Below the pieces are notes generated by a model. That model was not told the DNA's origin. It was given only the letters and a program-made list of their open reading frames with translations, and ran no database searches. From Peribolospora baueri (lineage: Eukaryota): 64,000 nt of DNA. The position numbers and the translations under genes were made by a program. Below are positions 17,401-40,400 of the stretch, piece by piece (the stretch's first letter is position 1; every line of letters begins with the position of its first letter). The stretch lies in contig JAMDHS010000019.1 in assembly GCA_029717555.1 (NCBI GenBank), forward strand, positions 62,001 through 126,000. The letters are read 5' to 3'.

Positions 17401-20400
17401 GCCGTCCGCCCTCGCGGCCGTCGTCGATCATCGCCGACATCTTCGAGGGCGGCCTCTTCGGCTCGGACGCTCGTAGCATCGACCTCGCCTTTCCAGAGTT
17501 TGACCTCGAAGCTTTGCGTCAGCGCGTCAGAGATGAGGAGGAGGCGAGCAGGGCTGAGTTTGGTAGTAGCGATGATGATGAGGCGCCCGGACAGGGCGTG
17601 GGCGTGGGCGTGGGCGACGGCGGGGAGGGAGAGGACGACGAAGGGGAGGCGACCGAGGTGGAGAGGCGCGAGAGCGGTCGCGACAAGCGCAGCGTGTTCG
17701 AGAGCGAAGCGGAGGACGCGGAGACCGAGACCGAGACGGAGGGCGGGGCCGCAAAGTGGAGGTCGGAGAAGGGTAAGGGGCCCGCCGGGCACCAGGTGTC
17801 GGCCATCCCAGCGAGCGACGGCTTCGACATCCCATACAGCCAGACCTTCTCCGGCAGGGATGGAGAAAGCGGTGAGGCCGATAGCGTGGACGAGGACAAG
17901 GACATCGAGCGTGAGGTCGAGATGCTCACGCGCAGACTCGCTGAGCTTCAGGCCAAGAGGGAGGCCAAGAGAGCCACGAGAGCCAGCGCAAGGACCGCCG
18001 TCGGGGCTGTCGAGGTCTCGAAGAAGGCGGCCGCGTCTCCTTCATCGTCTCCGGCCGCTCCTGAACCCATGTCCAGGAACCTTTCAGGTGGCAGCACGAA
18101 CTCGTTCCGCACCGCTCCTTCTGTGTCTTCCCTCTTCGTTCCAACTTGGCCGGTCGACGACGAGGGCGCCGACGCGGACGACGACGGAGAGGACGGCGAG
18201 GGTGACGGCATGCCCGGCGATTTCCCTTCCTCGTCCAAGGCCCTCCTCGGATTGTCCCGGTCTGCCTCTGTCTCGTCCACTCGGTCCACTCGCAGGCGCT
18301 CGGGCCGCACTGGAGCCTCTAAGCGACGCAGCCCTCGTCCGAGGAGCTTGGAGGAGAACGGACTGGGGCCCGACTCGGCTGCCAGCGCCAGCGCCAGCGC
18401 TAGCTCCAGCAGCGCCTTGGCCTCACCGTTCTCCGAGGACGGTCGCGCTCGTGGAGACGTCCAGCGCAAGGACGCGATCGCCGAAGATTCCGACGAAGTC
18501 GATCAGGGCTCAACTTGTTGGCGAACGCCTTTGCAGAGTCCCGACTCGGATGATCGGACGGATCTGGCTTGGACCCCTCGCGCCCGTTCTCCGCACAAGG
18601 ACATCCGCCGAGCGCACTCGTTGTCACATCGCCGAGCCGATGATGCCCAGGCGCGGATGCGCCTGTCATCGTCAGAGCCGGAACCAACGAGCGCTTCGAT
18701 CGTATCGGAGCGAACCATCGTCGGTCAAGTGTCGCCCGCTGACTCCAACAACGCCGATACCGAACGCCTGTCTGCTGCCGGCGACGAAGCTCCATCACAA
18801 AATTCACACACGGCAGGAGGCGCTGTCACTCCCCTCCCTCCTTCTCCCCCTCCTCTTCAGTCGCGTCATCGCACTCCCCTCGATGCCAACTCTGCTCCTT
18901 CAAACGATCCGGTCGCGCCCGCGCCTTCGGAGGCGCTTCCGACGTCGCCCATGTCTGATGCGTCCAATGTCTCAAGCTCCTCTCCACTTTTCTCCCCCGT
19001 CGTGCAAGCTCGCGAAATGGATGGAGAACGGAGGCGACGATCACCAGACAACGACGGCTCTGACCTCAGCACCTCCAGCACCTCAATGACGAGTCCATAC
19101 GGGTCAGAGGTCGTGACCAGCCCGAGCAAGACGTTCGCCCACCTCAAGGAGACGTACGTGCCACCTGTGCCGCCTAAATCGCACCCTTTTCCTTCTCCTC
19201 CGCCGGAGGAGGAAGAGCGGGATCGCGCTTTGGAGACGATTCCAACGACAACTCCGATCACATCCCGAGCACAGGCCATCGGCAGTCCCAGTCTGGTTAC
19301 CGGCATTGACGTCAATCTCATCCCTCCCACACCTCCGTCTTTGGTGCATGCCAACTCCTATACCAGCGTTCAGCCAGCCCATCAGGTCCCAGAGGAGTTG
19401 CCGCCGGTCGCTCCTGTGCCGGCGCCGCCGAAGATGATCAAGCCGGCAAGCTCAGGACCGCCTGAAGGCACGTCGTCCGCCAAGGTCAAGCGGTCCTCAT
19501 CTATGAGCAGCAAGCCCCGCACTATCATCATTCCAGAGTCCGATTCAGGTCTGACGCGCTCTCTCTCCGTCTCGTCCGCTCCGGGATTAAAGTCGAAACG
19601 CAAGTCGGTGAGGAGGAGCGGAATGCCGGAGGATTGGAAAAAGGACGTCCTCCAATTGGGACCGTCGGTAACCGTCAATTCTCTGGCAGCTTCAAGGCCG
19701 TCGTCGACCGCCCGTGCCTCCGAGTCTAAAAAGAAGACGAAGAAGGTTAAGAAGCCTTCCGAGGCGCGGGGCAACGGCGGTGCCGGGGCCGATGAGCGAG
19801 CCGTACAGTCAGCGATCGCACCGCGTCGGCGAACACTGTCTTCCCCCACGCATCCCACCGCTAGTGCGAGGAACACCGCGGAGGCCCGGCCGCCTCTTCC
19901 GCCGTCCAGAGTCCAAAGGTCTTTGTCGCTTTGTTCGGCCGCGTCTAGCGGCATCCTCTCCCAGCCTCGTTCCATCCTCAAGAAACCGACGTCGGCTTTC
20001 CCGGAGCACGTGGAGCAAGGCATCACGACGTCTGGCGCGGAGCATCAGATGACCGACGAGGAACGCGGCCCTTATCGTACACCGGTCCCCCGCCGCGCGC
20101 CTTCCTCCGGTTCGTTCTACAGCCATCATTCCCATTCGCCGTTCATTGACAGCGCCGTCAACGGCCATGCTCGACCCGTCTCGTTTCCTCCGAGCGAACC
20201 TTACCAGCGCCCTTCGCTGATGTCAGCCATTGCAAATTGGGAAGAAGAGGCGGCGCGGGGCGCGTTTGACCATCCAGACGCGGTGCCTCCACGGCCGCCC
20301 GTCTCGGACCCTTCGCGAACGCCCAGCCCGTACAGGGGCAGTACGGCGGCCTCGTCTTCTCTGATGCAGTCGCAGTCGCCCTCCATCCTTCGGATGAGCC

Positions 20401-21995
20401 ACATGGGCGCTCCCGCCTCGCATTTCCTCAAGCCGCCATCGCCCGCCGTTCATCCCAGAGCGATGCCGCCGGAGCTCGGCGAGGGAGGAGGAGGTCCCCG
20501 GTGGCCGGCGAGCTTGCGGTCGTTCCCTACTTCGCTGACCTCCTTCGACGGTCAGTCCTCTGACGGAAGATACTCGGTCATGAGCGTGCCGACTGCCGGA
20601 TATCGTCCTCGCGATCCACGCCGTCTCTCTGGGGACTTGGACGACGTGCTCCTCGGTCGTACGACCATGGCCACCTTGTCGATTTCCAGCCACGCCTTCC
20701 GAAGCGCTTCGTCGGACAGGCCCAAGACGCGTGTCCCGAGCCACCGGCGTAAGCGGTCCATCACGTCCGCGAGTTCGTCGGATTTGCCGTCTCATCTGGC
20801 CGATAAGCTGGACAAGACTCAGATGTCGGTATCGGCTCACATGCCGCCGCCTAGGAAGCTGGCCACGAAGCAGGTCCTCGTCGCCGTCCTGGCCGTCGCG
20901 ATTGACGAGTTCGACCGGCTCATCATCCACGAACGCACCACCAAACACGACAACGCTCACGGCTTCGTTCCTGGCCGAAGCTTTTGTGGTAGGGTTTTGG
21001 AGACGGGCTGGGAGGTTGACAGGGTTAGAAAAGGTGATATCGTTTTCGGTCTGCAAGACAGTAAAAAGGTAAGCTGCGACACTCGCCTGCCTCTGCGTAA
21101 TTCCCCTCGTGGTCGAAAGGCCCAGACTCAAAAAGTTCACTTTTTTTTTTTTCGAATCCCTGGTCGAACACAGTGCGGAGCATTGGCCGAATACTTGTCC
21201 ATCGACCACAATCTCTTGGCCCCAGCGCCCACGACTCTGAGCATCGAGCAGATCTCAGCCCTGCCCACCACAGGAGTGCTCGCTTACCAAATCATCAAAA
21301 ATCACTGTTCGGAGCTTCCGCGCGGCGCTCGCGTTTTCATCCTCAACGCCCATGACGGCGTGGGTTTGCTCGTCATGCAGGCGGCCGCACACCTTGGCAT
21401 CCTCATCACCGCTCATTGCCCGGCCTCGGTCGCTGATGGTCTGAGTGTGTGCGAGGCTAACGGAGCGCATGAGGTCGTCATCGGTGACGCGCTGTGGGCC
21501 CTCAACTCGCAGCACGAGTCGAGCTTTGAGTTGGTGAGCTTTCATGGATGGAGCGTCGTCGACATGGTTCCATTTCGTCTCACCCGTTTCGTTTTCACCG
21601 TTCTCCGTGTATGGCAGGTCATTGACACCGTAGGCGGCCGGCGCATTTACGACGCCTCTCGTCGCATCCTGGCAAGCGAGGGCCACTTCTCTACCTGCTT
21701 CGGCGATGAGCACACTACCGCCCAGCCTACTTTCAGGTCCCATTTCCGAAGCCTGCGCCGCGCGTTCTTCAAGAAGGACAAGAAGAACATCGGCTACGAG
21801 TGGATCACTTGCGATGCCAAGGAGGACACCAGGGAGGCGCTCGAGAGGATCGCAGAGGCTGTTCAAAACGGTCGTATCTGTCCACGTCTGCGCAGCATCA
21901 TTCCCTTCGGCGACGCGCCCCGTGCTTTCGAGCCTCATCCACACGGCAAGGAGGAGGAAGACGCGGGCGCCATCGTCATCAAGATTAACGGGTGA
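14463..21995 (+). CDS. Very large protein (about 2450 aa): about 2100-aa low-complexity N-terminus plus a C-terminal medium-chain dehydrogenase/reductase (GroES-like + Rossmann) domain
   Basis: Single 7.5-kb open frame. The C-terminus reads QVLVAVLAVAID...GFVPGRSFCGRVLETGWEVDRVRKGDIVFGL...CGALAEYLSID...EQISALPTTGVLAYQ...ARVFILNAHDGVG...VIDTVGG, a quinone-oxidoreductase/Yim1-like MDR pattern. Probable in-frame introns at 21069-21173 and 21534-21617. Confidence 0.88.
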   Translation: MPRPTFLQTILSRPSQSYSTYNPSDNASSSNPSDLPSASDRSISLVLSRPPSEISSAAGGTTKRRRGLLRRKASNSASSLRSHFSDRRPSPRSHADSESDLGAPAPTTSFSDVPPSTPNHHAGFSLFGSRRRRNSKTAVPDRYAGAGLVRNVVLAPDTPPSSASSHPHPPHAHVLAPPTELVPPFVSDDGHLLHRSHSQSHSPSSPNGQHRTAHARSPSAASSSMSHPLSERKRTSTSDWAAFVASIEARGVHFGRVGSSSPSCPEAAGPWPSARSRTTSMPLATLGGDGRQTDLVRRRRTLVERVRRELAEEEEASSDRRHSLSVVGHPSSNPSAVGVGAGTHAGFDPHSHCRSGQRLRSRTASHGNADDVAKAHRDVFRAQFTGGRSRSMIARPAADVAAGPPSSRGRGKFAAEACEDRPLPPLPEGANALKPAFRNDLLVLKPESLRTTSAAHAHAKEAPHVGSRPMVAVPAFSTSASVAERASASSASQTGSESESEASTEEEEEKKKEEGHDGERDEESTGEDEDEGVPSRIYAKSAPAEDGESASSSSTGSVSPASVSAKDEAKSTGLVIVASAPPDPDPDSDSGSGSDRGSSSSDLEEEEEEAHLARPPDLDTLVEASEDGSSIGHEMRPASRAFMGLPRRKAERSSSRPGRSPSRSIDDGGGTRPGAKVEDVEDVQQRVFSSSPLQLLSSLVTTDEPNLDETPTASTATPTQSKSDARSDTDSASTAAAAAAVAVAGDRSPSLVHRLSNLSLGTDFADALVPAPRRASSDSESTPRQKESSADGPFPDGSDKVVVASGRRLVDEMERQGSVGQNVVVFASAAAVPGSVLNVDNDDHSKPGTESTTTLPSPPHGIFGPSLSEIFAHYDLDKGLSEEQKAQLLRWRKHEEGRFVPGGRGGGGEEGLGRRLAERWLAADRREFDFGSQRAPSPGSDKEAVEAPADTGNVPIAPSLPGRTEESPSRELSDATDLTRRPPSRPSSIIADIFEGGLFGSDARSIDLAFPEFDLEALRQRVRDEEEASRAEFGSSDDDEAPGQGVGVGVGDGGEGEDDEGEATEVERRESGRDKRSVFESEAEDAETETETEGGAAKWRSEKGKGPAGHQVSAIPASDGFDIPYSQTFSGRDGESGEADSVDEDKDIEREVEMLTRRLAELQAKREAKRATRASARTAVGAVEVSKKAAASPSSSPAAPEPMSRNLSGGSTNSFRTAPSVSSLFVPTWPVDDEGADADDDGEDGEGDGMPGDFPSSSKALLGLSRSASVSSTRSTRRRSGRTGASKRRSPRPRSLEENGLGPDSAASASASASSSSALASPFSEDGRARGDVQRKDAIAEDSDEVDQGSTCWRTPLQSPDSDDRTDLAWTPRARSPHKDIRRAHSLSHRRADDAQARMRLSSSEPEPTSASIVSERTIVGQVSPADSNNADTERLSAAGDEAPSQNSHTAGGAVTPLPPSPPPLQSRHRTPLDANSAPSNDPVAPAPSEALPTSPMSDASNVSSSSPLFSPVVQAREMDGERRRRSPDNDGSDLSTSSTSMTSPYGSEVVTSPSKTFAHLKETYVPPVPPKSHPFPSPPPEEEERDRALETIPTTTPITSRAQAIGSPSLVTGIDVNLIPPTPPSLVHANSYTSVQPAHQVPEELPPVAPVPAPPKMIKPASSGPPEGTSSAKVKRSSSMSSKPRTIIIPESDSGLTRSLSVSSAPGLKSKRKSVRRSGMPEDWKKDVLQLGPSVTVNSLAASRPSSTARASESKKKTKKVKKPSEARGNGGAGADERAVQSAIAPRRRTLSSPTHPTASARNTAEARPPLPPSRVQRSLSLCSAASSGILSQPRSILKKPTSAFPEHVEQGITTSGAEHQMTDEERGPYRTPVPRRAPSSGSFYSHHSHSPFIDSAVNGHARPVSFPPSEPYQRPSLMSAIANWEEEAARGAFDHPDAVPPRPPVSDPSRTPSPYRGSTAASSSLMQSQSPSILRMSHMGAPASHFLKPPSPAVHPRAMPPELGEGGGGPRWPASLRSFPTSLTSFDGQSSDGRYSVMSVPTAGYRPRDPRRLSGDLDDVLLGRTTMATLSISSHAFRSASSDRPKTRVPSHRRKRSITSASSSDLPSHLADKLDKTQMSVSAHMPPPRKLATKQVLVAVLAVAIDEFDRLIIHERTTKHDNAHGFVPGRSFCGRVLETGWEVDRVRKGDIVFGLQDSKKVSCDTRLPLRNSPRGRKAQTQKVHFFFFRIPGRTQCGALAEYLSIDHNLLAPAPTTLSIEQISALPTTGVLAYQIIKNHCSELPRGARVFILNAHDGVGLLVMQAAAHLGILITAHCPASVADGLSVCEANGAHEVVIGDALWALNSQHESSFELVSFHGWSVVDMVPFRLTRFVFTVLRVWQVIDTVGGRRIYDASRRILASEGHFSTCFGDEHTTAQPTFRSHFRSLRRAFFKKDKKNIGYEWITCDAKEDTREALERIAEAVQNGRICPRLRSIIPFGDAPRAFEPHPHGKEEEDAGAIVIKING

Positions 21996-22084: not shown

Positions 22085-24062
22085 TCAACACAGCGTGCGC
22101 TCCCACCGGATCTCGAACCATCTAAAGCGTACCCTCGTTCCGTCCCTTCTTGCCCGTCGCCGCCGCCCTCGCTCATCGATCTCTTCAATGCCCGTGTCAA
22201 GACGCAACCGAGGCGCTCCGAAGTCATCCCAACCTCGGAGTTCTCGTTCAGCGGCGATGACGAGTCGATGTGAGTGCAAAGGCGAGCCGTCGGCCGCCGA
22301 GCCGGTAGCTGCATTCTCGGCGACGTCTCCTCGTCGAAGACTGGTGTCGGCGAGGGGGAAAGCCTTGTATAGCTCTGCCAGCTCGTCCCGGTGTGTCGGA
22401 CGAAGGGGGACGACGACGTGGAGTGTGGGCTCGTACCTCTCTTTCGTTTCTTCGTCATCCGCAGACGTGCCCACAGCGAGCCCGACATCGCTGCCGCTAG
22501 GCCTCGGCTTTGGGAAGGCGAGGTACCGCTCGGCGACGGCGCGAATCCAGTGCGGGTGTCGTACGTCGTACACGCAGTCGGCCGCGATGAGCAAAGTGAA
22601 GCTGTTGGCGGCCGAGTCGTCATCGAGGCTGGGACTCTGCGTGGAAACGGCAGGCACCACCATTCGCGGCTCGGTAGCGAAGAGAGAGACGGTTGGCGTG
22701 CCCTCTGAGGTACCTACGGCGGTGGGTGTCACGGTCGTCACCGCTGCTTCAGATCCATTCGCGTTTAGCGGGCTGTAGTTGTCCGATGAACGGTCGCCTT
22801 TGTAAGACGTCGTTGCCAATAGCGGAGAGACACCTGTGACGTCAGGATGTGCTCTATCTGGGGATGCCCACGATGAGACGGACGCGGAGGCTGGCCAGCT
22901 CGAGTAGTCGGGCTCGGCAAAGCGCGAAGTGGGCAATTGGTACGCCGTTTCCGTCAAACTTGACGTGGTCAGACCGTCGGTCGTCGCCAACGTCGATGGA
23001 AACCTTCTTGGGCCATCACGTCCATCGCGAGAAGCCCTAAACACATCGGCCCAGTTGAGCTGCGCAACGTGACAGCCGAGCAGTACGTCAGAGTCCATCG
23101 AGTTGAGAGCGACATTGTGGTGCAGGTTATTGAGCACGGTTGGATGATAGTCCGTCAAGAAGAGCGTGGCTATCTGTCTCTCATATCCATCCGCCTCATG
23201 GCCTCCGGTCGTCGCACCCTCTGCGGTCGCTTCGGCTTGCTGCCGCAAACATGCAGCGACTGCGAGCCCACAGAGCCCCGTCCCAGAGCCGAGCTCTAAA
23301 ACCCGCATTGGCGCCGCGCTCTTTTTCTTCGTGCCATCGCTCGTGAAGAAGGAATGGACGAGTCGCCGGGCGAGTAAGGGCGCGGCGCCCCACGTGCGAA
23401 CACCGAGCGCATCGTCTGTCAAGCTCGCATCTCTGAGGCGGACAGAGATCGAGCCGACGGAAGGGATTGGGAAGGAGAAGGTGCGAGTAGTTGGGCCAGA
23501 GGCTGGAGGCAAGAATGGAAGCCGCATTAAAGCGCCGTCTTCCCCGTCAAGCCGACCCGAGCTGAAGGCAAAAGAGCTCACCGGCCTTTCCCGCGCAGAT
23601 GGCCAACAACTGAGCGGCGCGATCAAGAGTCTGATCTGCGAGGTCCGCCCCTCCGTCCTCTTCCCTCTTGGTCCACTCCAGGCCAGAGGCGACGAGCCTC
23701 GTGAGCCAGTCTAGTACCCAACGGCGTTCGAAAGCCTCTGCCGAGTCGTCGCTGTCTTCCTCTTCCTGCGCATCTTCCTCCTCTGCCGTGGGTATTCGGC
23801 CGTGCTTCGCCAGACTGCGAATCAAAAGACCGTTGGCTGTTTCGCCGGCCGACGCCATTCCCTCCTTCTCCGCGCCATGCTCGGAGAAATGGACACCTTC
23901 GATGGACTCGTCGCAGATGACCACATCGGTGTCTACTCCAAACGCTATCGCGAGCTGGTCCAGCGCATGGATAATGACCGTAAGTGATGGCCTTGGCCGC
24001 CTGGCCAGAAGGGGGAGGTCACGCGAGGGGATGAATGAAGTCGGTGGCGAAAGATCGGTCAT
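22085..24062 (-). CDS. SAM-dependent protein methyltransferase of the Methyltransf_16 family (Efm2-like), 2 exons
   Basis: Motifs DDALGVRTWGAAPLLA, RVLELGSGTGLCGLA, LFLTDYHPTVLNNLHHNVALN, VAQLNW and LLIAADCVYD. The N-terminal exon has WLTRLVASGLEW and AAQLLAICAGKA and is joined by a GTGAGC...CTCCAG intron (about 23504-23581). Confidence 0.88.
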
Positions 24063-26619
24063 GCGAAGTCAGCACGGAGGGCGAAGGCTGAACGAGGGAG
24101 TCCTGTTTTCCTGTTCCGATGCGCAATTTTGTCGAACCGTTTATGTCTACGTCGATCGCGTGAGCCCACTGAGCCCGTTGACCCGAGTGCTGTGGTCCTG
24201 GCTGGGAACGGCCAGGTGGGAAGAACACAATTATCTCAGCGCGGTCCGAATATCTGCGGAAAACGTATGTGGACGAGCGCACGGCGAACGAACGCCACCA
24301 CTCTCACCTCCGTCCCTGCCCTCCCGAGCTCAAAGTCGTAGGTCAGCGACCAAGAGTCTTCCTCCTCGTCAAGTCCGTCAAGTCTGGGTGGAGGGTCGGA
24401 AGCCGGAAAAGAATGAATTGCCGAAATCCGAACCGGCCGCAATTCGCCGCAGGGCCGGATCGTCGCGACGCCGGCGCCATTCTACGACTGCCATCGCCAT
24501 CACCGTCGGGCACAGGCTTTGTTGGGCAATGGCCGTGACGACCCACCCTCTTAGTGCGTTGATCCACTCGGTTTTGCTACAAGCTCACTGCACCTACCAG
24601 AGAAGAGAGGTCTTTCTCTGACTCGTATAAGTAAAGCATGGTCGCGAAATGAGAAGAAATCTAGACGGTTGGGCTGTATTACTTGCTGAAAGCCGAAGCA
24701 CGCCCTATCACCTTACTTCCTTTCCTTTTCAGCCCGCCGTTCTCCCAGCTGATCTTTCCTGATTCCATCGCTCTCCAGGCAGTAGCGAACCGGACGCTAT
24801 GTCCTGCCCGTACCCGCAAAGCACCACCACCGCAACGGCCCACGGCCCGCATAGTTGGGCCAAATCACGCTTCCTGACTTCTGCTGTCTCATCTTCAGCT
24901 GTTAGTGGTTGAAGGAGTGCACAAGCGCGCTCAAAAAGTGCTCTTCCATGGACGATGATTGCAGGTAAAAAAAAAATGCACGGGCCCCGGCGTCAAGTTC
25001 GTCGCTTGCCTTGACAGTCCTCGGGAAAGATCTCAACTGTTGGCAACGTCAGACGTATGTTGAGGACAATGATTATGGGGAGGATGCCAATTTCATCCTC
25101 ACCACCGCCATCGTCATGAGTCGAATCTGACACATTCCTGGCCTCTTCTGCTCAACGGACCAGCAGTCGCCCGGTACTGTAAGTAGCGACAACGCGTTCT
25201 GTATCCCGTACATCTACCTTTCTTATTCTATGCCTTCCGACGGGCTGCCTTTGACCTGGGAGATGGCCCTACTGACTCGTATGACTCATATCATCTCGTG
25301 CTTTATTTATTGTACGCCCCTCTTGTGCCAGTTACGATATTTACACATGTCGGCGGGGGAACGGTTAGAAACGATGGTCTCAGCGGAGGGTCGTATTTGC
25401 AAGCCTCGCTTTTTTTTTTGCCTCTTCTCGTTCATAAATTTGTGTTCACTGGCGCTGATCTTATGTCCTAGTCTGCTGAAACCTATCTCTCCATGGCCCT
25501 TGCCGTCACACGTTCCCTTCATCACTGGATCCTACCCTCCATTCTCATAGAATCACGGTAATGACCGGGGACGATATGGCTCCAGACGCACCGAGAAAAG
25601 GCTCTCGGACATCGGATCTACGAAATCACTCCGAGCAACAATAATAGCTGATGGGCTGCGCTCTTGCCACAATGTCGACGACGCGCACCAGCCGACACCG
25701 CGGGGGAAATCGACCGTCGAGGAAGGCGTGCGCCATCGTCGTTGATTGATGCAATATATCCAACTCAGGTACGTATGGCATGATAGAGGCATGTCGGCAT
25801 GTCCGATCGATACGTGCGGAGCTGAACAGGGCGCAATGCTCGAAGCACATACCTTGCACGCGCCCGTCGCGCCGCCGGCTCGTGGACGGCTCTGGGGTCG
25901 AGGTGCACCGTGTACCTGATTGGCAAGGCGGGCGAAGGACGAAGAGGCAGAGAGGCTTGCGCACAAGAATGCACACGGTGGGGCAGCGAGCAGGCATGCT
26001 CGAGCCATGAGACGAACTATTCCAAGCCGCCGAGGGTCAGCCAGGGCGTTCTTAGGCACGAGTCGCGTCGCGACGAATGATCGCTCGCCTTGCTTGCTGT
26101 CGTCGCGCTCCTTCGGCGTCGATCAGATCAGGGGCACCGGCGGCGACTGCGGCAGCGTCACGGTGGTGGTCGAGATAGAGTAGGGGACGAAGATAATCAA
26201 CCCCTCCCACCTCCCATCTCCTTCGTCCTGTGTCTTTCCTTTCGTGACGAGGCAAGGCGGGAGCGGAATAGATCAGACAGAGGCCTATTAGACGGTGGAA
26301 TGGTTTCAAGACGAGTAGACGAAGCGGTGAGCGGCTCTGCCCTTTCCCTCCCCGCCATCTTGGTATCGCTGACCTCGCGCGCGCTTGTCCGACTTTGTCG
26401 CTCTCCTCGTTTGGTTCAGACACTGTTCCTCTCGTCACCGCCCTAGTCAGACGTTTCACCTTCCCGCTCTTTCCCTTTTCTCGATCACTTCGTATTCTTC
26501 TCTTTTGCCCGCGCTTTTTTCAGTTGTCTCGCGTTCGTCTTCCGCCCTGACCTCGCCCAACCTCGAGCACCTCGCCGTCCTAGCTCCCTAACCATCGCTC
26601 CATACCTGGCACAGCCATC

Positions 26620-29600
26620 ATGTTGTACCCCAGCCCTCCCTCCGCACCTCGGCCTCGACCGCCAGCTCGGTCCACGTCGGGCAACTCCAATGCTCGCAAG
26701 TCCGTCCAAGGGCCGACGGATCGGAGCCCAGCCGCCGCTTCTCTTCACAGGACAAAACCAGAGGAGGAGGAGGCTAATGCGGGCACGCTGAAGCACGAAG
26801 TGGACTCCAAGGCCGGGCGCGTACCGGTGGACACAAAAGTAGAGACGGTGACGACCGTGTCCAACCATCCTCCCCCGCCGTCGTACTGTGCCGCTATCGC
26901 GTCTCGTTCGACGTACACTCCTTCCCAAACAGCCCTGCACGCCACCGCTAACCACCCGCACACGCCCGGATGGCCCCTGCCTCCTCTGCATCTCGATCTC
27001 GATCTCCCACCCGAGCTCGCCCGCGCCATTACGGAACGACGCAGGAGCAGCCCCTTTCCCGACTCCGCCCACTGCGAAACCTCGGATGACGGTCGCTCTC
27101 AGCTCGCAGATGATGGCGCTTCCCCGTTGGCGAAGGCTGCAAGCGCGTTACGTATCGCGTCTGGACAGGGTGCTCAAAATAGCTTGAATGGGACAGGCCT
27201 GGGCGTGGGGAACGAGGAAAAAACGCGGGAGACGGGGGTGTTGAGCAGTAAGTGGATTGGAGATAGGAGCAGGGATGAGCTGGAGAGGCTACTTGTCGAG
27301 GCTGACAAAGTCATTAGGGAGAGAGAAAGGGGTAAGTGAGATTGAGACTTGGTTACCTCACTTCCTCTCTGTTCTTTTTGGCCTCGCTCGTCCTGGAGCG
27401 ATGCTCACTCGTCTGTCTCTTCTCCAGACCTCAGTATCACGGCCGCCATCGGCCAAAACCTTCTCGAAAAGAACATATATCTTCGAAATATGCAGACATC
27501 GCTGTATGCTGCCTATCAGCCTCAGCCAGAGTCACAATACCCTTACTACCCCCCTTCATTTCACGCATTTCCCGGTCGTGTGGGACTGCCTTCTTCTCCG
27601 CCTCAAGTGGACCAGCCGCCGCCCGCACCGGATCAGGCTGTCGAGCTGCAGCCATCCTCTGACACCGTCAGTCCCAATGAAAGGTTCCGCTTCCCGAGAG
27701 TGGAAGACGACGATCACTACACGACCTTCGGCTCGCCTTCGTCCACTCTCCAGACCATGCGTCGGCACGGACATAGCAGGAACAGCTCCCTACGTTCGAT
27801 GCACGACCGCAGTCGAAAGAGCAGCACGAGCAGCTTTGCTCATTTGGACGCCGCCATCGAACGGAGAGCGCAGTTGATCGCGTCGACGAGCGCGATTAGG
27901 ACCCCCGCTAGCACCGCACCTGGCAGTCCCGAATTTGAGAGGCGCAACCTACACTCTCCGTCAACCTCCATAGACGGCAACTACCCCGCTGCCGCTCGCG
28001 CTTCGCTGTCTCGGACCTCCCTTTCAGGGAGAGGAGTCACGTCGTCCCCGTACCGCACGTCGTCAGACACGCCCTACCTCGATGAGCTAGCCAAGCAGAA
28101 CGACGCCCTTCTGAGCCAGCTGGCCGACCTCCAGGCGGAGGCGAGTAGGGCGGAGAAGGCGGGCAAGCGCAAGTTGCGCAAACTGGAGAAGGAGATGCAC
28201 GAGCTGAAGGCCGAGATGGAGAGATTGGTGGAGCGAAATGGGGAGTTGGAGGCCAGGGGAGAGCAGACGGAGTCGAAGAGGGGCAAAGGACCCGATGTCG
28301 TTACCTGGAAGGGAGACGTGGCAGGAGGACGATCCGAAACGGACGGGGAGGACGCGAACATGGATCCGCCAAGGCGTGCCGAGTCCCGCGCCGACGATTC
28401 GCCACCTTCATCTCGTCTTTTCCACCAAAAGCGCTCCGCAGCCAAGGGGGAGGACGAAGTGGACAATGGAGACCCAACCCCGGTGGAAGGCGATCCGCGC
28501 CTGCCACCTTCCCTCTCTTCCCGTAGTCTTGCCTCCAGCTCATCTACCAATGACGCTCCTGTGGACCCGTCGGCACCGGAGGTGGAGCGTGCGTTAGTCT
28601 CTCAGCTGATGAGCAAGATCGCCGAGCTGGAAGAGGCGAACGTGGCGATCGCGGCCCAACGAGAACACATGGACGGTAGGATGGAGAGGGTGATGTACGA
28701 GGCGGATCGGATGAGGCGCGCGTACGAAGACGAGCTCGATGCAGTGAGCGTGTGGCCAGGCTCGAGCTTAAAGGGCAACAGTCCGCAAAGGACGAGGAAG
28801 AGGCGCGCCGCTGGAAACAGACTCATCATCGAGGGTCGTAGGACGGCTAAAGCGCTCGCTAGTCTCGCTCGCAGAGAACGTCTCCGGCAGGCACCGGCCG
28901 GCAGCAGTGGCAGAGTGGAGGGACACGACGACGTCTGGACCGGTCCCTCGGTGTCTTCTCTCCCCTCAAATGAGGTTGATCGACTCCTACAGACGAGCGT
29001 CTCGCCTAGCCCCAGTGCCCGGATCTTCATGTCCAGCCCTGTCACCACGAGCGGTGGAAGCGGTCGTACGTGCGGGGCCAGTCCGGGGACTTCTCTGGAC
29101 CCGGAGAGCCCGGCCGCTCGCAGGGCGAGGAAGAAGGGCGGGAGGGGCAGCAGGAAGAGCTCCCGGATGCTGGGTATGAAGGATCATCCGCGCATTCAAA
29201 TTACGCCTTCGCAGGACGACTTGGGCCGTTCGACGGTGGACGAAGGTCGCGCCTCGGGGGAGTGGACGGATGAGCCGCTTCCGATACAGATGGATCGGCT
29301 ACGACCTCTCACCCCTTCGTCTAGCAAGAAGACCGTTTGTCGGGTCGTTTCTGCACTCTCGATCGGAATTGCCGGCGGCAGAGGCTCGCCAGCCGGGAAG
29401 GTGCGCACGATGCGCAAAGTGTCCAGCTGCGCCGACCTCGCCTTTGTGAGCTCCGCTCCTGCTTCCGCGGCCTCGATGCCCGTGGGGGATGGAATGAGCA
29501 CGCTGGGCTCGTTCCCCAGCTTGTGCGGCGAAATGAGGAGTCTGGGAAGCGAGAATAGCCTTCTCAGCCTGGCTGAGCGCGATCTTTGGGGAGAGCCTCT

Positions 29601-31041
29601 GAACGGGTTTAATAGAGGTGGCGACCGTCTCATTCATTCTCTCGGCAGTGAGCTCGGCTTTCCCACCCTTCATGCGGGCGACCAGGATGACGGCGGTTTG
29701 GACCTTCCTCTCGAGTCCGCGTCTGCGCACGCCGAATCGCCTGTGCGCTCGTCGGAAGGCCATCGCGGGCGCCTCCAACTGCCGGCACGACCGATGTACA
29801 GGAGCTACTCGGAGGACGATGAGGACATCAACAGCACCATGCAGCCTTCGGATTCTCATCAGGGGTCCAGCCGTGAAAGATCGCCCGCCCACGTCCTGGG
29901 TAGACCCGTCCAGCGCTTGAGGAAGATGATGGGAAGGATCGTATCTGTGCCCGGAACGCCTCGACCCACGGAGATGAGCCGGGGCCAGATACTGAGGTAC
30001 GGCGGTTTGGAAGACGGCGAATGGCTCGACACGGAGGACGCCGCGCTGGTCGACCGCGGCGAGCTCCGCAGCCCTGACCGTCCTCCGGATGCGGAATCTT
30101 TTGATCTCCTCGACCAGGCTGCTCGATGGCAGCCCGTGCGCTGGGCGGACGATGAGGATTTCGGTCTGCCCATCACCGAAGAGGAGGCGAGTGGATTTGG
30201 GCCGTTGGCGATCATGACAAGCCAGGGTAGCGGCAGCGGCAGGCTTAGCTTGATCGGGCGAGGACACAACGATCGAGAGGGCGACTGGCGGCCGGGTCGC
30301 CTGGGCGCACCATTCGAAATTGAGAGCGCGGAGATGGTCCACGCTCGGGAGACGCTCCAGCGCCTGCGTCATCGTCGGACTCTTGTGGACGGCGAGAAAA
30401 ATCTCGCTAGCTCCGAGGGGAGGTCGTTTGGTGGGGGTGCCGTCGGACAGAGCAGCAATAGCCTGGCGTTCCCTAAGTCTTCTCAGAGCTCCGCGGACAG
30501 CTTTCCTGCCCGTCCTCCACGGTCGTCGGGTCCGGTGCATCACCCACGCCGTTCGCTCGCGATCGAAAGGCTCGGCCTCGGTTCGACGCGCGAAAGGGCC
30601 CTCTCCATTGCCACCCGTACCTCCTCCTCCGGCCGCCGTCGCAGGCCTGTCCCCGTGTTTTCAGGCTCTGGCCCGCTCTCTGATCTTGCAGCCGCCACAG
30701 GTGAGACTGTGCCTGGTAGCTATATGGCAGATGAGGAAGATGAGCATGAGGAGAGTGAGAGTGGGGAGGACGACGACGACGACTTGTCTTCAGAGGATTT
30801 CGAGCTCGTCGACGAACGTCACCAAGCGGGAGCCCTGGGCACGGACTACTACCCCGTGAGCCTCCGCGCGCGCTACCACCCGGCGATGGTCAGCAAGAGG
30901 CTGCAGAATGCGGCGGTGGAGCAGGCGTTCGTTATCTTGGCGTACATCCAGCTCGCTATCGTGCTCACCTTCGTCGTCGTAGCTTGTTGGAGCAAGGGGC
31001 CTCAGAGTGTTTTGGGAGCTCGAGGCGCCAAGGCGACGTGA
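26620..31041 (+). CDS. Coiled-coil protein (about 1440 aa) with a HAP1/TRAK-like N-terminal motif and a single C-terminal transmembrane helix (tail-anchored)
   Basis: Exons 26620-27331 and 27428-31041, intron GTAAGT...CTCCAG. The junction reads ELERLLVEADKVIRERERDLSITAAIGQNLLEKNIYLR. Heptad-rich segments lie near 28070-28270 and 28590-28740. The hydrophobic stretch FVILAYIQLAIVLTFVVVACW is followed by a 16-aa tail. Confidence 0.85.
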
Positions 31042-31644: not shown

Positions 31645-33020
31645 ATGCCCGCCGCCTCTCGCTCACCTGCAAAGTCGCGCTCGACGCGCACCACGCGCTC
31701 CTCCGCTGAGCCCATCTCTCCGCCGGTCAAGACGGTCACGCTCTCCTCTTCCTCCTCCAATGGCTCCGTCGTCGGAGCTGGCGGTCGTCCTCCGCTGCCT
31801 CGCGACTGCGCCAACGAGTTCTTGCCCGACCACGAAGTCGCCGTCAAGCGTCAAGTGATCCGGAGGGAGGGACAGAACATCATCATTGCGCGCGTCAAAC
31901 TGCCCAGCAGTCCGACCGACCACGCGTTTCTTCTCAAGCGGTGAGTCACCCGCTTCTCGGTTTTACTCTCTCCGCCGCTATCGCTGCGGTGTGTCCGCTG
32001 TGGACGGCGCATTCTGCACGTAAGCGCGTTGGACAGGCGCGCCGGTTCGGACGAGCGAGGGAGCACGCCGCTGATGCCCTGAAACTGTCCCTTTTTTGCA
32101 GCTTCGACTCTAACGCTGTAGCCGCCTCCGCCATGTTCCGCATCGCCTTCCCCACCGCTGACGGCGAGATGGAGCGCGCGGAGATGGCGTATCTGGAGCG
32201 AACATATGACTGCGAGAACGCTAACGGCGGCTCGTCCAAGTCTCCTGGCCGAGGGATCCGCCTCGCGGGCGTCTGGATGCCCGCCGACGACGCCCTTGCG
32301 GTGGCTGAAGAGTACGGCCTCACGCGATTCGTCGAGCCCCTGGTGCGCGCAGGGCCGGAGGAGGACAAGCTCCGGGAGAAGGAGAAGGAGGCGGTCAGCA
32401 CGCCGGCTAGGAGCAAGCGCTTGCGTGTGACCGAGGCCATCGATTCTCCGGCGCAGGCCGCGGCAGCCATTTCGACCGCTAGCCCGAGCCGCGTGGAGAA
32501 GTTGGAAACGACGGTGGTGCGGGTGGAGGAGACGACGAGCGCGGAGACCAAGCCGAGCGGAACGGTTTCGACGACAGCGACGGTCGTCAGCTCTACTGAC
32601 GCGGACGGGCGCCCGGCGCAGCTGACCGACGCCGAAATTGAGGCGAGGATCAAGGAGGCCAAGGACATCGTCAAGAAGGTCCAGCAAGAAGGGGGTGACG
32701 CTGGTACCGCGACCTCCACCTTAGACGCCAGCGCCGCCGGCAAGGGCCGCGGCACGAAGCGAAGCACACAGACGGTCGCCGCGGAGGACGCCGCGGAGGA
32801 CGAGAGGGAGCGTCGTGAGGAGCAGCAGGTGGCGCGCCAGTGGGCCGCCACGAGGGTGCTGCGCAGGGCCGGGAAGGCAGCTCGCGAGCGCAGGGGCGTG
32901 GTGACCCTTGGCGCTGCTGCCGCCGTCGCTGCTGCCGGGTTCGCCGTATCCCAGTTGGGCGGTCAGTTTCCCTTCGACGTGTCCCAGCTGGGCGCTCAGA
33001 TCGGAGGATTTTTCTTCTGA
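31645..33020 (+). CDS. BQT4: Bqt4-like inner nuclear membrane protein (APSES/KilA-N HTH domain plus C-terminal hydrophobic anchor), 2 exons
   Basis: Intron 31941-32101. The spliced sequence HAFLLKRFDSNAVAASAMFRIAFPTADGEMERAEMAYL...RLAGVWMPADDALAVAEEYGLTRFVEPL matches the Bqt4-type APSES domain. The C-terminus has the hydrophobic segment GVVTLGAAAAVAAAGFAVSQL...GGFFF after a basic patch. Confidence 0.8.
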
Positions 33021-34329: not shown

Positions 34330-37300
34330 GGGGTCATGCGTCGTGGACGAGCTGACGGTCTTACAAGGAGAACAAAAAGGTGGTGCTGTTTGGATTCGTC
34401 GTCGTCGGCCGGCTGGCCGTCATCACCAACGTCATCGCCATCGGGCGGGCGCTGCGGAGGGATGGGAGGGAGGCGAGGAGCAAGAGCTGACGTTACGCTG
34501 GAGCGGGCGTCGGCATTGTTCTTTTCTCATCTCATCTCATCTCATCTCACCCCGCTCCGCTCGCTGATGATCTGATCGAAGAAAAGATAGGCAGCCGAGG
34601 TGGAAGAAACGCAAACGCATGATGTGGCTGAAACGGATTGGCTGGGATGGGATGGCCCTCGCTTTCCCCGCCCACCCTGGCCCGGTCGTGCCGCACCGCA
34701 CCGCACCGCACAGCACAGCACCCCGTCCGTCGTCTTGGCCCCTGTCTCTCTGTGTGTCCGGCAGGCGGAGAGAGGGAGCGAGTGAGCAAACAAGCAAACC
34801 CCAAAGAGCGAGGCCTAGGCTAGGGCCGAGACGGGGGTGGGGGGTTTGGATCCCCATCCCCTCTGCACCCTCGAACTTGCGAAGGGGGGGTGAAACGGAT
34901 GTGGACGTGGCGCTGGGCCTCGTCCGAACGAAGCGTTTTTGGGGCGTCGTCGTCGTCGTCGTCGTCATCGTCTAGACCTAATTTCTCGTCCCCACGTTCA
35001 CTTGGCACCATCGGACGCCCACCGAGCCGCGAGCCGGAGGGCAGGGAGGAAGCAGAGCGGGAGCGTTAGCGCGGGTCACGTGCGAGCGCGTTGTTGTACG
35101 AACAAGAGAAAGAATACGGAAGCGGTGCTTAATAACAATGAAACGACGGCTTAGTTAGCGTGCGCCAGCCCCGCGGTGGACGTGCATGCCGTGCGTTCGT
35201 CTGCCGTCACTTGCCGTCACACCCCGCCCCGCCCCGCCGCTGCCGACTATCAGCGCCTCGGTCGTCCGACACGGCCTTTGTGTACACTACCGACACGACC
35301 GGCGCCCCACACGCCCGCCCCCAAGTGCCGAGCTCGGCCAAGGCCCCAGAGCCCGGCAGTGGCTTGTGTTTGTGTCTGTCTGTCTGTTTCGGTTTTTCTT
35401 TTCGTCGCGCCGAGCCGAGCCGACGGTAGAGGGACGCGGACGGACGCATGAAGGGTTGGTTCATGCTGGCCTTGGGTCGGACGACGACCACGACGACGTC
35501 TTCTTCGTTTTCGTCGAGGCGGGAGCGAGCGGACGGGCGGGCGTAAGACAGTGACCGGCGGCTGACGACGGTAGGTGCCCACCTGAGACTGACTCGTCAG
35601 GTCCATCATCATCCCTTGTAGTTAACGCCACGGCGGCTCCCGTGCTCAAGCGCAAGCGCGTCCCCGAACATACGGTTCTTGTGCATCCTTTTTTTTTCCT
35701 TTTTTTTCTGTTCGTCCCTCGTCTCAAACTCGAGACGAACCCTGATCGAGCCGAGTCGCAACGCAGCCCTAGTTCTAGTTCTAGTTCGGCAAGGCGGCCG
35801 CTGCCGTCACCAGTTGCTACGCCGTCACCGCGCCGCCATCGCCATCGTCACGCCATCGTCACAGCGGACGGCCGACCGCCGTCGGCTTTCAGCGTCGTCT
35901 ACCCTTTCCCCTCCCCTCTCCCTGGCGGATCGCATCGGATCGCATCCTGCTGTCACCTGTCTCGGATCCGAATCCGGATTCGGCTGGCCATCCCCTCGTC
36001 CGTCCTTCTCCTCCCTTCTCCGTCTCCCTCCGCTCGCATCGTGTCGCGCGCGTCGTCGGAGAAGACACGAGGGCATAGGGGGAAGAAGAAGAAGGAGGAG
36101 GCGGCTTGTTCCATCGCGTGCACCGCAGCCAGGCAGAAGAAACCCGCGGTAACTAGGCGTTGGGCGGTCGAAGAGGTAAGTCGTGCTCGTAGTCGTTCGG
36201 ATTCGTTATCATTGTACGACTGGAGCGGGGTGTACGGGGCCAGCTGCCGTCGTCGTCGTCGTCGTCGTCGTCGGGGTCGGGGTCTACATACGTGGAGCAA
36301 GTAACCAAGGGGTGGCCCGCTTACGTTGCGAGCCGAGGCAGGCGTGGAAAACGAACGAAGGGAGAAGGGAGGGATGAACGAAGGGAGGGGGCACGCATAC
36401 TGCCGCAGGCTGCAGACACATTGCTGCGTGAGTGAATGCCCCAGGCAGGGGCCATCCATTGATTTCATTCGATTTGGCTTGGTTTGATTCGATTGGAGGA
36501 GTCGCGCGCGCTCGTCCGGTCCGCCCGTCTGTCTGTTGTCGCTATCGCCCGTCGTTCTAGTTAAGCTCGCGGGCTAACGTGAGTCCAAGGGCCAAGGGCC
36601 AAGGGCCATGCATGCTACGCCGCGCTACGGGTGGATGGGATGGATGGATCGGACGGCCGAGTAGTGGTCGCCTGCTCGCCTTGCCTCGCTGCGCAGGCGG
36701 GCGCCTGATTGGGCATTTCTCCACCCTATCGTCGTCCGTCGTCCGTCGTCGTCGTCTGGCTGTGGCTGATGCTGGCTGATTGATGGCTGGCTGGCTCAAT
36801 GGCTGGCTGGCTGGCTGGCTGGCTAACCTGCCGGTCGTGTCATCCCATCCGTTGGCTGCCCCCGCCTCCCCGTGTTCGCTCCTGCATCTGCATCTGCATC
36901 TGCGTCTGCGTCTGCGTCTCCTTCTGCTTCTGTTCTGCTTTTGCTCTGCTTCTGCTTTTTGCTTATCGCTGCGCCGCCGTTGCCGCCTCTGGCCGCCGCC
37001 CCCCTTCGCCTTGTCCCCTCCGCCGCCCCTTCCCTTCCCTGCCCTGACTGACACCCACCTCCGCCACTTTTCCTTCCGCCCCCTTCCCCTTCTTCCCCGT
37101 CTCATTTCACCCTCGCCTCGCCTCCTTCTCAACGACGCTCGACCTCGACGTCGCCCTTATATTATATCCCTTCCACCCCACTCCTCCATCCCTCCCTGTC
37201 CTCTCCACCACCATCGCCTCGACACCACCGCCCGTCGCAGCGGCTCTTCCTCGCCCCACCGATCTCGCGACCCGTGCTCAACGGACATTTTTTTCCTTCC

Positions 37301-37439
37301 TCCCTTTCCCCACCCCGTTTCTCCCTCTCTCCCCCTTCGCACCGGATCCTATTCTATACCCCGGGTCAACAAAACAAACCAACAAAAGACGGCCCCCGTC
37401 TGCACCCACCCACCCAACCCCCCTCCCAGTTTGCCCTCC

Positions 37440-40400
37440 ATGGCCGCTGCCGTCCTGCGCGCTCCTCGGCACGAGGTCAAGCGCGACTCCGCGCCCACCG
37501 TCTCGCTCCACCCCGTCGCCATGAGGAGCGCCCCAGGCGAGCAGTCGTCCACCACCGTCTCGATCGAGATCCCCTCGACCCCAACCAACGAACCTGCAAA
37601 CCGCCCGCCCGACCGTCTTGGCGGCGACGCTGCCACCCCACGCCCCGTACACCCCTACCGTCCTTGCTCACCGCCCCCGGCTGCCTCGGCCGGCCCGTCC
37701 TACGGCCTCCCAGATCCCCTCCTCGACGACTTTGCCGTTCTCGCCGAGCTGCCCTCGGGCGTCCCCGTTCGCGCTTGCTCCGCCGCTCAGCTCGTCCACA
37801 TGTGGGACCGCCTCGCCTTGGACCATGACACGCATCCCAACGTCGTCTTCCCCTTCCTCCACGGCTGCGACGGCGCCGTCCAGGTCCAAAACTACTACTT
37901 TGGCGTCTCCTCCCAAGGATGCGCCGTGCCCAAGTACCGCGGCCTCACCCTCGTCAGGGCCGACGCCCCCCTCGACGCTCCTTCCTCGCGCCGCTCTTCC
38001 GCCGCCTCTGCGTCGTCCGAAAACGCCAACGCCACTGCTGCTCCTGCTCCTGCCGACGACGACGTGGGCAGCCCTGCCCGCGCCGCGCCGCCCAGCTTGG
38101 CCTCCAGCCACTCGTCCGCCTCGATCGCCGACTCGTTCGACTCGACCAACAGCCTCTTTTCACTCGCCTCGGCCGCCAGCTCGTCGGCCACGACCGTCAT
38201 CTCTGGCTCTTGTTCCGCAGACAGCTCCGGCTTCGGCCATGTCCACAAGCCATACACCCCTCAGCCCGACCACTCGCTCCTCTCCTCCACCCTCCTCCCC
38301 TCCGACCTCCTCGTCCCTGCCCGCGCCTCTCCGCCGCCCTCGACCGCCGCCGCCCTCGATCCCTCTCAACGACCCGTCTTTATCGGCTGCTTGAGGGAAG
38401 ACCGCGCCGATGATAGCCCCTCGACGGCCGCCGACATGGCCGCCTCGTCGCCCAACGCCGCCGCCAATCTCCTTCCTCGCTTCCGCCGACCCGTTCAGAA
38501 AGAAGGCGTCAATCTCCGCAACTGGGGCATTCAACCCGCCTTCTACGCCTCGATCTCCGACATTGTCGTCTACAGCCCCACCCTCGGCCCTGGCCCCACC
38601 GAGCCCGCCCTCGCCCTTGCCCTCAAGCTCGCCCTCGCCCACGAGACGACGCTCATCCAGCGCCAGGTCAGGGGACTGGACAACGGGTTAAGGTACAACG
38701 TCTTTGTCCTCACCGACGGTTTCGACACGGTCCAGCGCGACGCCAGCCACCTCGTCATGGTGCCCGACGAGCGAACGTGCGCGAGCGCCGCTTGGAGTCG
38801 GATGGAGAGCTTGCGAAGGATCGATTTTCCCGAGAGGGAGCAGGAAGAGATGCGCATCCTCACCGAGGCTAAAGAGGGAAACGAGATTGATGAGAATGTC
38901 TGGGTGGGTCCTTTGTCTATCCGACGCCGCCTCGCGCCCGCCTCGCACTCACCCTCGTCCCGTTTCCCTTTTTCTCAACAGCTGGGCAACTCGCAGGACG
39001 TGCCGGCCCCGCACCTCGAGGACGGCATGGGAGCGTCCTCGCTCGGCCTTGGCGCCGACGACCCCAACCCGCTCCGCTTCAGCATCTGTATCGAGGCGCA
39101 CGAAGGCGCGGACATGCCCTGCGAATCCACTCTCGCCCGCGCTCAGCACCACGTCGAAGAGGCAGAAGCCGAGGTTCGACTCGAGCTCGGCGGCGGCGGC
39201 GGCGGCGGCAGCAGCAGCGGCGGCGGTGGTCGGCAGGCAGTCGACGGTTTGGACGACAGCTCGGACGACGAGTCTTCCTCTGCTCGCATCCGCCGCGGCG
39301 TATTCAAGCTCGGCTTGCCCTTGGGCAGCAGCAGGAGCGCGTCTCCGGCCCCAGCTATACCGCCCGCCGAGCTTCCCGCTCCTCACCCGTGCGACATTGT
39401 CCATCTCGAGTGCCCCAGCGGCTTCCACAACCTACGTCCCTCCGCCGTCCAGGCTCGGCTCGAACAGCTCTACTTGCTCTGCGCCTGGATCAAAAAGATG
39501 GCCACCGGCTCGGCGCGCGAGCAGGACGGCACGTCGGTCAAGTCGGGCAAATTTGCCAACTACTTCTCGTCCAACGGCGCCTCCCAGCGCTCGACGCCCA
39601 AGCGGCGCATCCTCATTCACTGTTCCGACGGCTACACCCAGACCTCGGTCTTGGGCCTCTGCTACATCATGTACGCCCGCCACATGACCCTCGCCCAGGT
39701 CATGCTTCATCTTCAGTCCAAGCGCTCCTTCTATCTCTACACCGACGTCGACGGTCCTCACTCGCCCGCCCTGCCTATTCTCAAGCGCTTCGAGGCCATG
39801 CTCGAGCCCGAGCGCAAAAAGTGGCAGGACCAGCAATGGAAGGAGTGGAGGGACAGGGAGCGCAAGGAGCGAGATAGGTCGGACCGGGATCGGCCCGACA
39901 AGGAGCGCGACCGCGACCTTCGGGTTTCCCTTCGCAGACAGCGTCTTGGCTGCGCCGCCGGCGCCCACCGCGGCGACCTCGACGCTTCCTCGCACGCCTC
40001 GTCCTCGTCGACGACCTCCACCACGGTCCCCCTTTCGAACGGCAGCAGCAGCAGCCCTGCCTCGGCTGTCGTCGCCCCCGTCGTCGCCGTCTCTGAGCCG
40101 TCCGTGTGGGCCCGAGGGTTGGCTGCCGCCAGCGGACTCGTAAGCGCCGCCGCCGGTTCGTCCAGCCCCTGTAACGGCAGTGCTTCCGGCGCTCACAGAA
40201 GAAAGTCGCCGGGCCCCCCTGAAGCGGGAGAGGCGCTCGGCCACACGCACATGACCACCACCACCGCCCGTTCTTCGGCCAGGAGCCCCCGCCCGAAATC
40301 GAGCTCTTCCGCCTCGTCCTCCAGCTTTGGTGGTGGCTCGGGATTCGCCCGCATGGACTCGTCGTCGTCGTCGTCGTCACACGGCTCGACTGGCGCCAAT

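Follow-up and report, generated by a model that had tools for sequence, protein, structure and literature searches.

The window analysed here, a 64,000-nucleotide stretch of the Peribolospora baueri genome (contig JAMDHS010000019.1, positions 62,001 to 126,000), is fungal-type DNA of ~60% GC from an assembly of 22.7 Mb, and the locus of interest within it is a single-copy gene of two coding exons whose product combines three coiled coils (CC1 to CC3), a long disordered stalk and one C-terminal transmembrane (TM) helix (Table 1). The frame opened by the ATG at 26620 reaches two TGA codons inside the intron, which rules out intron retention as the coding form. Removal of the intron, which has a GCTCAC branch-point-like element and a pyrimidine tract, leaves a coding sequence of 4326 nucleotides, or 1441 amino acids (aa) plus the stop codon, in which a motif resembling the CC1 box of dynein adaptors begins at residue 236. 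An earlier note on this DNA had proposed that splicing restores this motif inside a heptad-rich helix, and the relatives bear this out: in an eight-sequence alignment, 32 extra residues interrupt the read-through protein precisely at the intron, where 7/7 relatives are contiguous. Moreover, among the 139 family members whose CC1 match reaches at least 12 bits, 27 are truncated, 17 of them at profile columns 28-31, which is this junction; this suggests that other genomes also have an intron at this place. Use of the junction 27331/27428 in the coding form is well supported by these comparisons. The two further coiled-coil blocks, the disordered spacers, the single TM helix and the 16-aa tail are all present as the earlier note had described them.

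Table 1. Features of the gene and of its predicted product, in window coordinates (aa, residues of the spliced product).
Feature	Position	Strand	Remarks
Exon 1, coding	26620..27331	+	ATG, conserved N-terminal ML...RPRPP, disordered region, first half of CC1; start is the family consensus
Phase-1 GT-AG intron, 96 nt	27332..27427	+	Two in-frame TGA; splits the CC1 box; relatives contiguous there
Exon 2, coding	27428..31041	+	Up to stop codon
CC1 helix, aa 208-266	27241..27513	+	Intron inside; 77 bits to family block
CC1-box-like motif, aa 236-254, core TAAIG	27325-27477	+	Within CC1 helix
CC2, aa 452-514 (helix about 449-522), LxxQNxxL ... GxxKLRKL	28069..28257	+	157/158 proteins; pLDDT >90
CC3, aa 622-674 (helix about 622-679), QLxxKIxELE	28579..28737	+	155/158 proteins; pLDDT >90
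Spindly-like motif SLGSELG, aa 975-981	29638..29658	+	Isolated in disordered stalk; [ST]LxxE[LIVM] pattern
Short helical block ending WADD, about aa 1116-1146	30060..30153	+	Family consensus; helices in model
Acidic tract then FELV, Atg8-interacting-motif-like	30793..30810	+	By eye
Juxtamembrane GTDYYP...RARYxP, aa 1375-1391	30838..30888	+	Seen in roughly one third of rows that have a TM
Single TM helix, aa 1404-1425	30925..30990	+	Sole KD19 >1.6 region, peak 2.71; long helix in model
16-aa tail, net charge +3	30991..31038	+	Invariant GP right after TM; no KASH end

Judged by sequence, the gene is a single-copy member of an uncharacterised family that spans Basidiomycota and Glomeromycota. A search of 1.84 billion representatives with the eight-sequence profile gave 441 clusters at E <= 0.001, of which we examined the best 150. 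Named members of the family come from smuts and their allies (Ceraceosorus, Exobasidium, Meira, Tilletia, Sporisorium), from rusts and red yeasts (Puccinia, Melampsora, Sporobolomyces, Cystobasidium, Mixia, Atractiella) and from Agaricomycotina (Phaffia, Calocera, Auricularia, Sphaerobolus, Cytidiella, Mycena), all named "hypothetical" or "uncharacterized" or bearing an automatic HAP1_N label. The order of elements is fixed, with the CC1-box-like helix, two more coiled coils, a disordered stalk, and one TM helix followed by Gly-Pro; according to block profiles built from the same alignment, CC1 is present in 131 and the TM block in 134 of 158 sequences including the query (for CC2 and CC3, see Table 1), and 112 of the 158 have all four blocks in order. 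A search with CC1 only, in which 8000 candidates were scored and 80 matched, brought in Glomeromycota proteins of 550 aa as well as one HAP1_N protein from a nematode (E 3e-4), and no ascomycete was found among the named rows of these matches. The Glomeromycota proteins align with the family across CC1-CC3 (hhalign 99.5%, 286 columns), with CC2 and CC3 near-continuous, and they also end in a TM helix and RGP, which makes them orthologue-like. Single queries have low sensitivity in this family, as a Glomeromycota protein used alone misses the gene in the present genome; a single 43-aa region used to look for short relatives gave one match among 40 candidates and told us little. In feature searches, the closest clusters were unnamed basidiomycete ones, and a cluster from an ascomycete, at 0.89 and 0.87, is a lead. 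Two oddities stand out among the members: a fern-labelled protein has scores comparable to those of the Meira protein in every block and probably represents fungal DNA in that assembly, and four members of 1900-2270 aa, with 1200-1400 extra N-terminal residues, are probably gene-model fusions.

The first coiled coil of the family resembles the CC1 boxes of animal dynein adaptors. In Pfam, HAP1_N (positions ~70-113) was the commonest match, found in 30 of 41 canonical-type members (E <= 0.01) and in 5/5 Glomeromycota, and it was the sole match of the query's CC1 piece (positions 79-104, E 0.058, 13 bits). Against the PDB, a whole-protein profile of the 41 canonical-type members ranked BICDR1 (E 0.011) first and TRAK2 (E 0.012) second, both at the box, and a profile of the five Glomeromycota proteins matched BICDR1 at E 3e-4. 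A 37-column profile of nine fungal boxes, picked partly for their likeness to animal boxes, matched BICDR1 at 8e-8 (105-141) and TRAK2 at 1e-4 (121-150), with the next match at 0.76; as the box stands far above the other coils in this comparison, we rejected a chance match of a bare coiled coil.

A second dynein-adaptor signature, new here, is found after the coils. In the 133 sequences with both CC3 and TM blocks, the Spindly-like pattern [ST]LxxE[LIVM] occurs between the two in 124, against 10.2 expected from 200 shuffles per sequence; the stricter LxSE[LIVM]G occurs in 83 (0.5 expected), and 129 sequences have the loose JxxE-hydrophobic form, for which 70.9 would be expected. The Leu and Glu are nearly invariant in the family alignment, and in Glomeromycota LLSE is invariant in 5/5, ~330 residues past the box. 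In the query, the motif forms a short island of slightly raised model confidence within the disordered stalk, as expected for a linear motif. Known adaptors have closely similar sequences: BICDR1 carries SLLSEI, as printed in the PDB alignments, and the BICD2 motif is LLSEL, the updated consensus being JxxE-hydrophobic (bioRxiv 10.64898/2026.04.25.720804). The box, coils and motif follow the canonical order of adaptor elements (PMC5379953), and docking of the motif on p25 is putative.

On balance, we consider it reasonably probable that the protein is a tail-anchored, probably dimeric CC1-box adaptor of dynein and dynactin, comparable to BICDR, TRAK, HAP1 and CDR2, a reading built on the gene structure, the family, the order of the elements and the sequence likeness of the box and the Spindly-like motif. 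One chain would then be both adaptor and membrane anchor, the CC1 box contacting dynein's light intermediate chain (LIC), the Spindly-like motif dynactin, and being self-anchored, it would let dynein pull the membrane without a separate receptor. The genome encodes the expected partners, including an LIC with the helix FFQSLL, p25 and p62, as well as Hook. The dynein-adaptor idea of the earlier note has gained from the commonest Pfam match and the best PDB matches, and the case is stronger than first made since, in two fungal phyla, the second signature comes in the order expected of an adaptor.

Several observations weigh against the adaptor reading. Every HAP1_N match lies under the curated cut-off of 33.9 bits, the relatives scoring 18-26 bits over ~40 of 307 positions; HAP1_N was matched in the CC1 region, where the earlier note had proposed to look, but too weakly for us to file the family under that entry (PF04849). 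A 60-member pan-family profile that includes degenerate forms found generic coiled coils only, BICDR1 and TRAK being lost, and the nematode TRAK-like protein is similar in 46 columns at the box and nowhere else. The box itself is variable: among 128 ungapped boxes, AAxxG is seen in 51, one Ala plus the Gly in 5 (query included), the Gly only in 11 and none of these in 61, so that of the two conserved features foreseen earlier, AAxxG held in a minority while the Gly and Pro after the TM helix are 100% conserved where aligned. The Gly-less boxes are mostly TSxxC, the two named members of that class being Agaricomycetes, and the LIC contact may have been changed or lost in crown Agaricomycetes. 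In the query, the core TAAIG has Thr in place of the first Ala (the BICD2 A43 position), while the second Ala and the Gly are retained; the CC1 box claimed in the earlier note finds its support in the BICDR1 and TRAK2 matches but departs from AAxxG. A43 and G47 of BICD2 are small core residues that form the cavity for the LIC helix (PMC7655957), BICD2 and Spindly no longer bind the LIC once AA is changed to VV (PMC5379953), and in Spindly a single change of the second Ala impairs dynactin recruitment (10.1101/279398); because the first Ala is Thr here, this copy may bind the LIC less strongly. The family is a putative member of the CC1-box class, since function decides on membership. A complex prediction with an orthologue's CC1 dimer (196-262) and the LIC helix of this genome scored 0.01 against a mark of 0.34, but was run with the alignment unused and is not evidence either way. 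As for the second signature, the pattern is short, was chosen post-alignment and was counted in related rows, so that its presence demonstrates conservation, not function, and it is missing in 9/133 rows, several of them rust-type; in the query, it lies 301 residues beyond CC3 (family 26-380, median 155).

The coils give further grounds for caution. The three together total ~180 residues, against ~270 in BICD2, and no HBS1 (QxxH/Y plus an acidic patch) was found ~30 residues past the box, where CC1 of basidiomycetes ends ~20 residues after the Gly; in addition, the adaptor-binding sites of dynein differ in Aspergillus (bioRxiv 10.64898/2026.04.25.720804). The model of aa 239-1438 has confident helices for CC1, CC2, CC3, ~1205-1234 and the TM segment, with a pTM of 0.31, and 842 of the 1200 modelled residues have pLDDT <50. 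On the other hand, broken coils are the rule among adaptors and short adaptors exist, the chemistry of HBS1 varies, the element is not universal, and in HOOK3 it sits on the next coil (same preprint); as a lead, QLQH is found 20 residues after the Gly in 3/5 Glomeromycota. Since coil breaks are common and HBS1 varies, the short coils and the absence of HBS1 lower the adaptor reading but do not sink it. The same features would fit a golgin-like tether or scaffold, in which the CC1-box-like helix would have another amphipathic helix as its partner or be a relic, and no dynein would be activated: the 61 of 128 members without the Gly keep the rest of the protein, and a feature search for a Glomeromycota member gives the tail-anchored golgin CASP at 0.82-0.83, a result of lead level only. 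However, two dynein signatures in the right order would then be a coincidence, 57 of the 58 Gly-less members retain the LxxE motif, and the box is matched by BICDR1 and TRAK2 well beyond the other coils; we regard a golgin-like role as unlikely. Another alternative takes the likeness to TRAK further, with a two-motor scaffold where kinesin binding at the coil breaks is as important as dynein or more. In TRAK1, a coil break overlaps the kinesin-1 site (bioRxiv 10.64898/2026.04.25.720804), and CC3 is weakly colinear with TRAK2 ~245-265 (2.8 bits, not significant), but with no significant TRAK match outside the box and no kinesin motif identified, we give this explanation very little weight.

The membrane end of the protein bears on where an adaptor of this kind would act. 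In the 120 members with the Gly-Pro landmark, the tail has a median length of 20 aa (up to 110) and a charge of +5, is at most 30 aa in 107, and another hydrophobic window >1.8 is found in 2, by which the family qualifies as tail-anchored. The tails of basidiomycetes are basic and their ends unconserved; in the five Glomeromycota orthologues, an amphipathic helix rich in Trp and Arg precedes the TM segment, and the tail is acidic, 11 aa long and ends PN[DE][ML]. In yeast, a TM GRAVY >1.75 marks endoplasmic reticulum (ER) proteins, and strongly basic tails can redirect proteins to peroxisomes (PMC5450235), although our hydrophobicity is a window score and not the exact GRAVY measure of that paper. 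The ER or the outer nuclear membrane is our best guess, carrying about half of the weight, and is favoured because of the very hydrophobic TM helix and the acidic Glomeromycota tails; peroxisome or mitochondrion would come next, on the basic tails of basidiomycetes. The KASH-like role suggested in the earlier note is not supported. A divergent KASH protein, anchored in the outer nuclear membrane by a SUN-binding tail, would fit the single C-terminal TM helix of ER-type hydrophobicity, and KASH5 is a precedent for a TM dynein adaptor whose class has a lumenal SUN-binding tail of ~30 aa (PMC11059388). Nevertheless, 0/120 tails end in PPx, the tails are short (16 aa here) and mostly basic, and no Pfam KASH match was obtained for the C-terminal piece or at the locus in the genome search; we rejected the KASH assignment and consider it extremely improbable.

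Close to the membrane, the acidic tract followed by FELV resembles, as we take it, an Atg8-interacting motif. TM-anchored autophagy receptors have long disordered arms, like the architecture seen here, and the protein could be a receptor for selective autophagy (ER-, nucleo-, pexo- or mitophagy) with dynein recruitment in addition, which is compatible with an adaptor and a rival only for the main job. An acidic tract and [FWY]xx[LIV] are found near the TM helix, in the same place, in the query, in 15/15 smut/rust/yeast-type members and in 5/5 Glomeromycota, counted by eye, but in only 2/10 Agaricomycotina-type sequences read, and the four-letter pattern was judged without a shuffle control. 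A receptor role also leaves unexplained why conservation is highest in the three coils and the LxxEL motif, and as the main function we find it improbable. The helical block ending in WADD is a candidate cargo- or self-binding site.

Known adaptors share parts of this design in different combinations. KASH5 binds the LIC by EF hands. Like the present family, it is a tail-anchored activating adaptor (PMC11059388), but its lumenal tail binds SUN, while the family has a CC1 box and no KASH end. BICDR1 (BICDL1) and BICD2 share with the family the CC1 box, the downstream coil and a Spindly motif of the SLLSE[IL] type; unlike it, BICD is soluble, with a continuous CC1 containing HBS1 and a C-terminal cargo-binding coil, in place of three short coils without a visible HBS1 in basidiomycetes and a TM anchor of their own. 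TRAK1/2, Milton and HAP1 resemble it in having a CC1 box, a broken coil, a Spindly motif and organelle cargo, whereas the TRAKs reach mitochondria via Miro and their match is limited to the box, the C-terminal half being unrelated. The nearest membrane-linked cases are CDR2 and Nesprin-2. CDR2 and CDR2L, CC1-box adaptors for the ER, differ in that CDR2 depends on the integral protein kinectin for its recruitment (PMC11580933), where the fungal chain would itself be both adaptor and anchor; Nesprin-2 has its motifs in reverse order on spectrin repeats, and its dynein binding needs BicD2 (PMC11310688). The fungal Hook proteins (Hok1/HookA) have a Hook domain and no TM helix and reach endosomes via FTS/FHIP (PMC3998801). 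In the part available, PMC9481740 aligns animal adaptors only. Our searches, made outside subscription journals, found no description of a fungal CC1-box protein of this family, and no papers on a Spindly motif in Aspergillus or on how BicD and Hook adaptors evolved in opisthokonts, though the 100-sequence CC1-box alignment of PMC7655957 may contain fungal entries; the adaptor literature on Ustilago gave Hook papers and reviews only.

The same genome provides a second case of such a box. A HAP1_N scan, in which three candidates were scored and one was kept, pointed to the N-terminus of a gene whose C-terminal end encodes an Mcp5_PH domain (73 bits), the predicted orthologue of Num1/ApsA/Mcp5. 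Its box matches HAP1_N at E 2.7e-4 and the family described here weakly (E 0.004, probability 8%). The core of the box reads AGRLG, and a second, similar repeat (ATEIG) and an LGDEL after the coiled coil are also seen. Num1/ApsA, which we take to be a dynein anchor, thus has a box similar to that of the family but binds the cortex with its PH domain and lacks a TM helix. Finding the other box in a dynein-binding protein supports the meaning of the motif in fungi, and the statement of the earlier note that the best-known fungal adaptors are Hook-type needs this addition. Among the papers listed, none links Num1 with a CC1 box or a Spindly motif.

The neighbouring genes in the window are of other kinds. 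The next gene downstream (31645-33020, + strand) resembles by eye an APSES/KilA-N protein that bears a hydrophobic helix at its C-terminus, presumably Bqt4-like, and its exon pieces had no Pfam match. Upstream, on the opposite strand (22085-24068), lies a lysine methyltransferase (Methyltransf_16, E 4.5e-13), and at lower coordinates a 2580-codon, mostly low-complexity frame (14253-21995, + strand) whose end looks by eye like a dehydrogenase of the zinc/quinone-reductase type. Farther downstream, a long frame with two HCxxG-type motifs (36780-41294, + strand) resembles by eye a dual-specificity phosphatase.

In basidiomycete hyphae, dynein moves the ER, nuclear pores and nuclei, and the well-studied adaptor there is Hook on early endosomes. 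We know of no dynein adaptor for the ER or nuclear envelope named in basidiomycetes, and the literature searched did not contradict this. In a bolder scenario, adaptors with a CC1 box and a Spindly motif would predate the split of animals and fungi, and fungi would have a set of their own: the present family would move the ER or nuclear envelope and also hand membrane to autophagosomes via its membrane-near Atg8 motif, Num1/ApsA would belong to the same class, and the mushroom-formers would have rewired the LIC contact but kept that with dynactin; taken as a whole, we hold this scenario to be doubtful. If the adaptor reading is true, the family provides an integral-membrane CC1-box adaptor with the canonical motif order, and the CC1-box/Spindly design either dates back to the common ancestor of fungi and animals or has arisen by close convergence. 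The natural variants AAxxG, TAAIG and TSxxC would be useful for reading the LIC-binding code, and with a single-copy candidate and two separable targets for point mutation, the question is directly testable.

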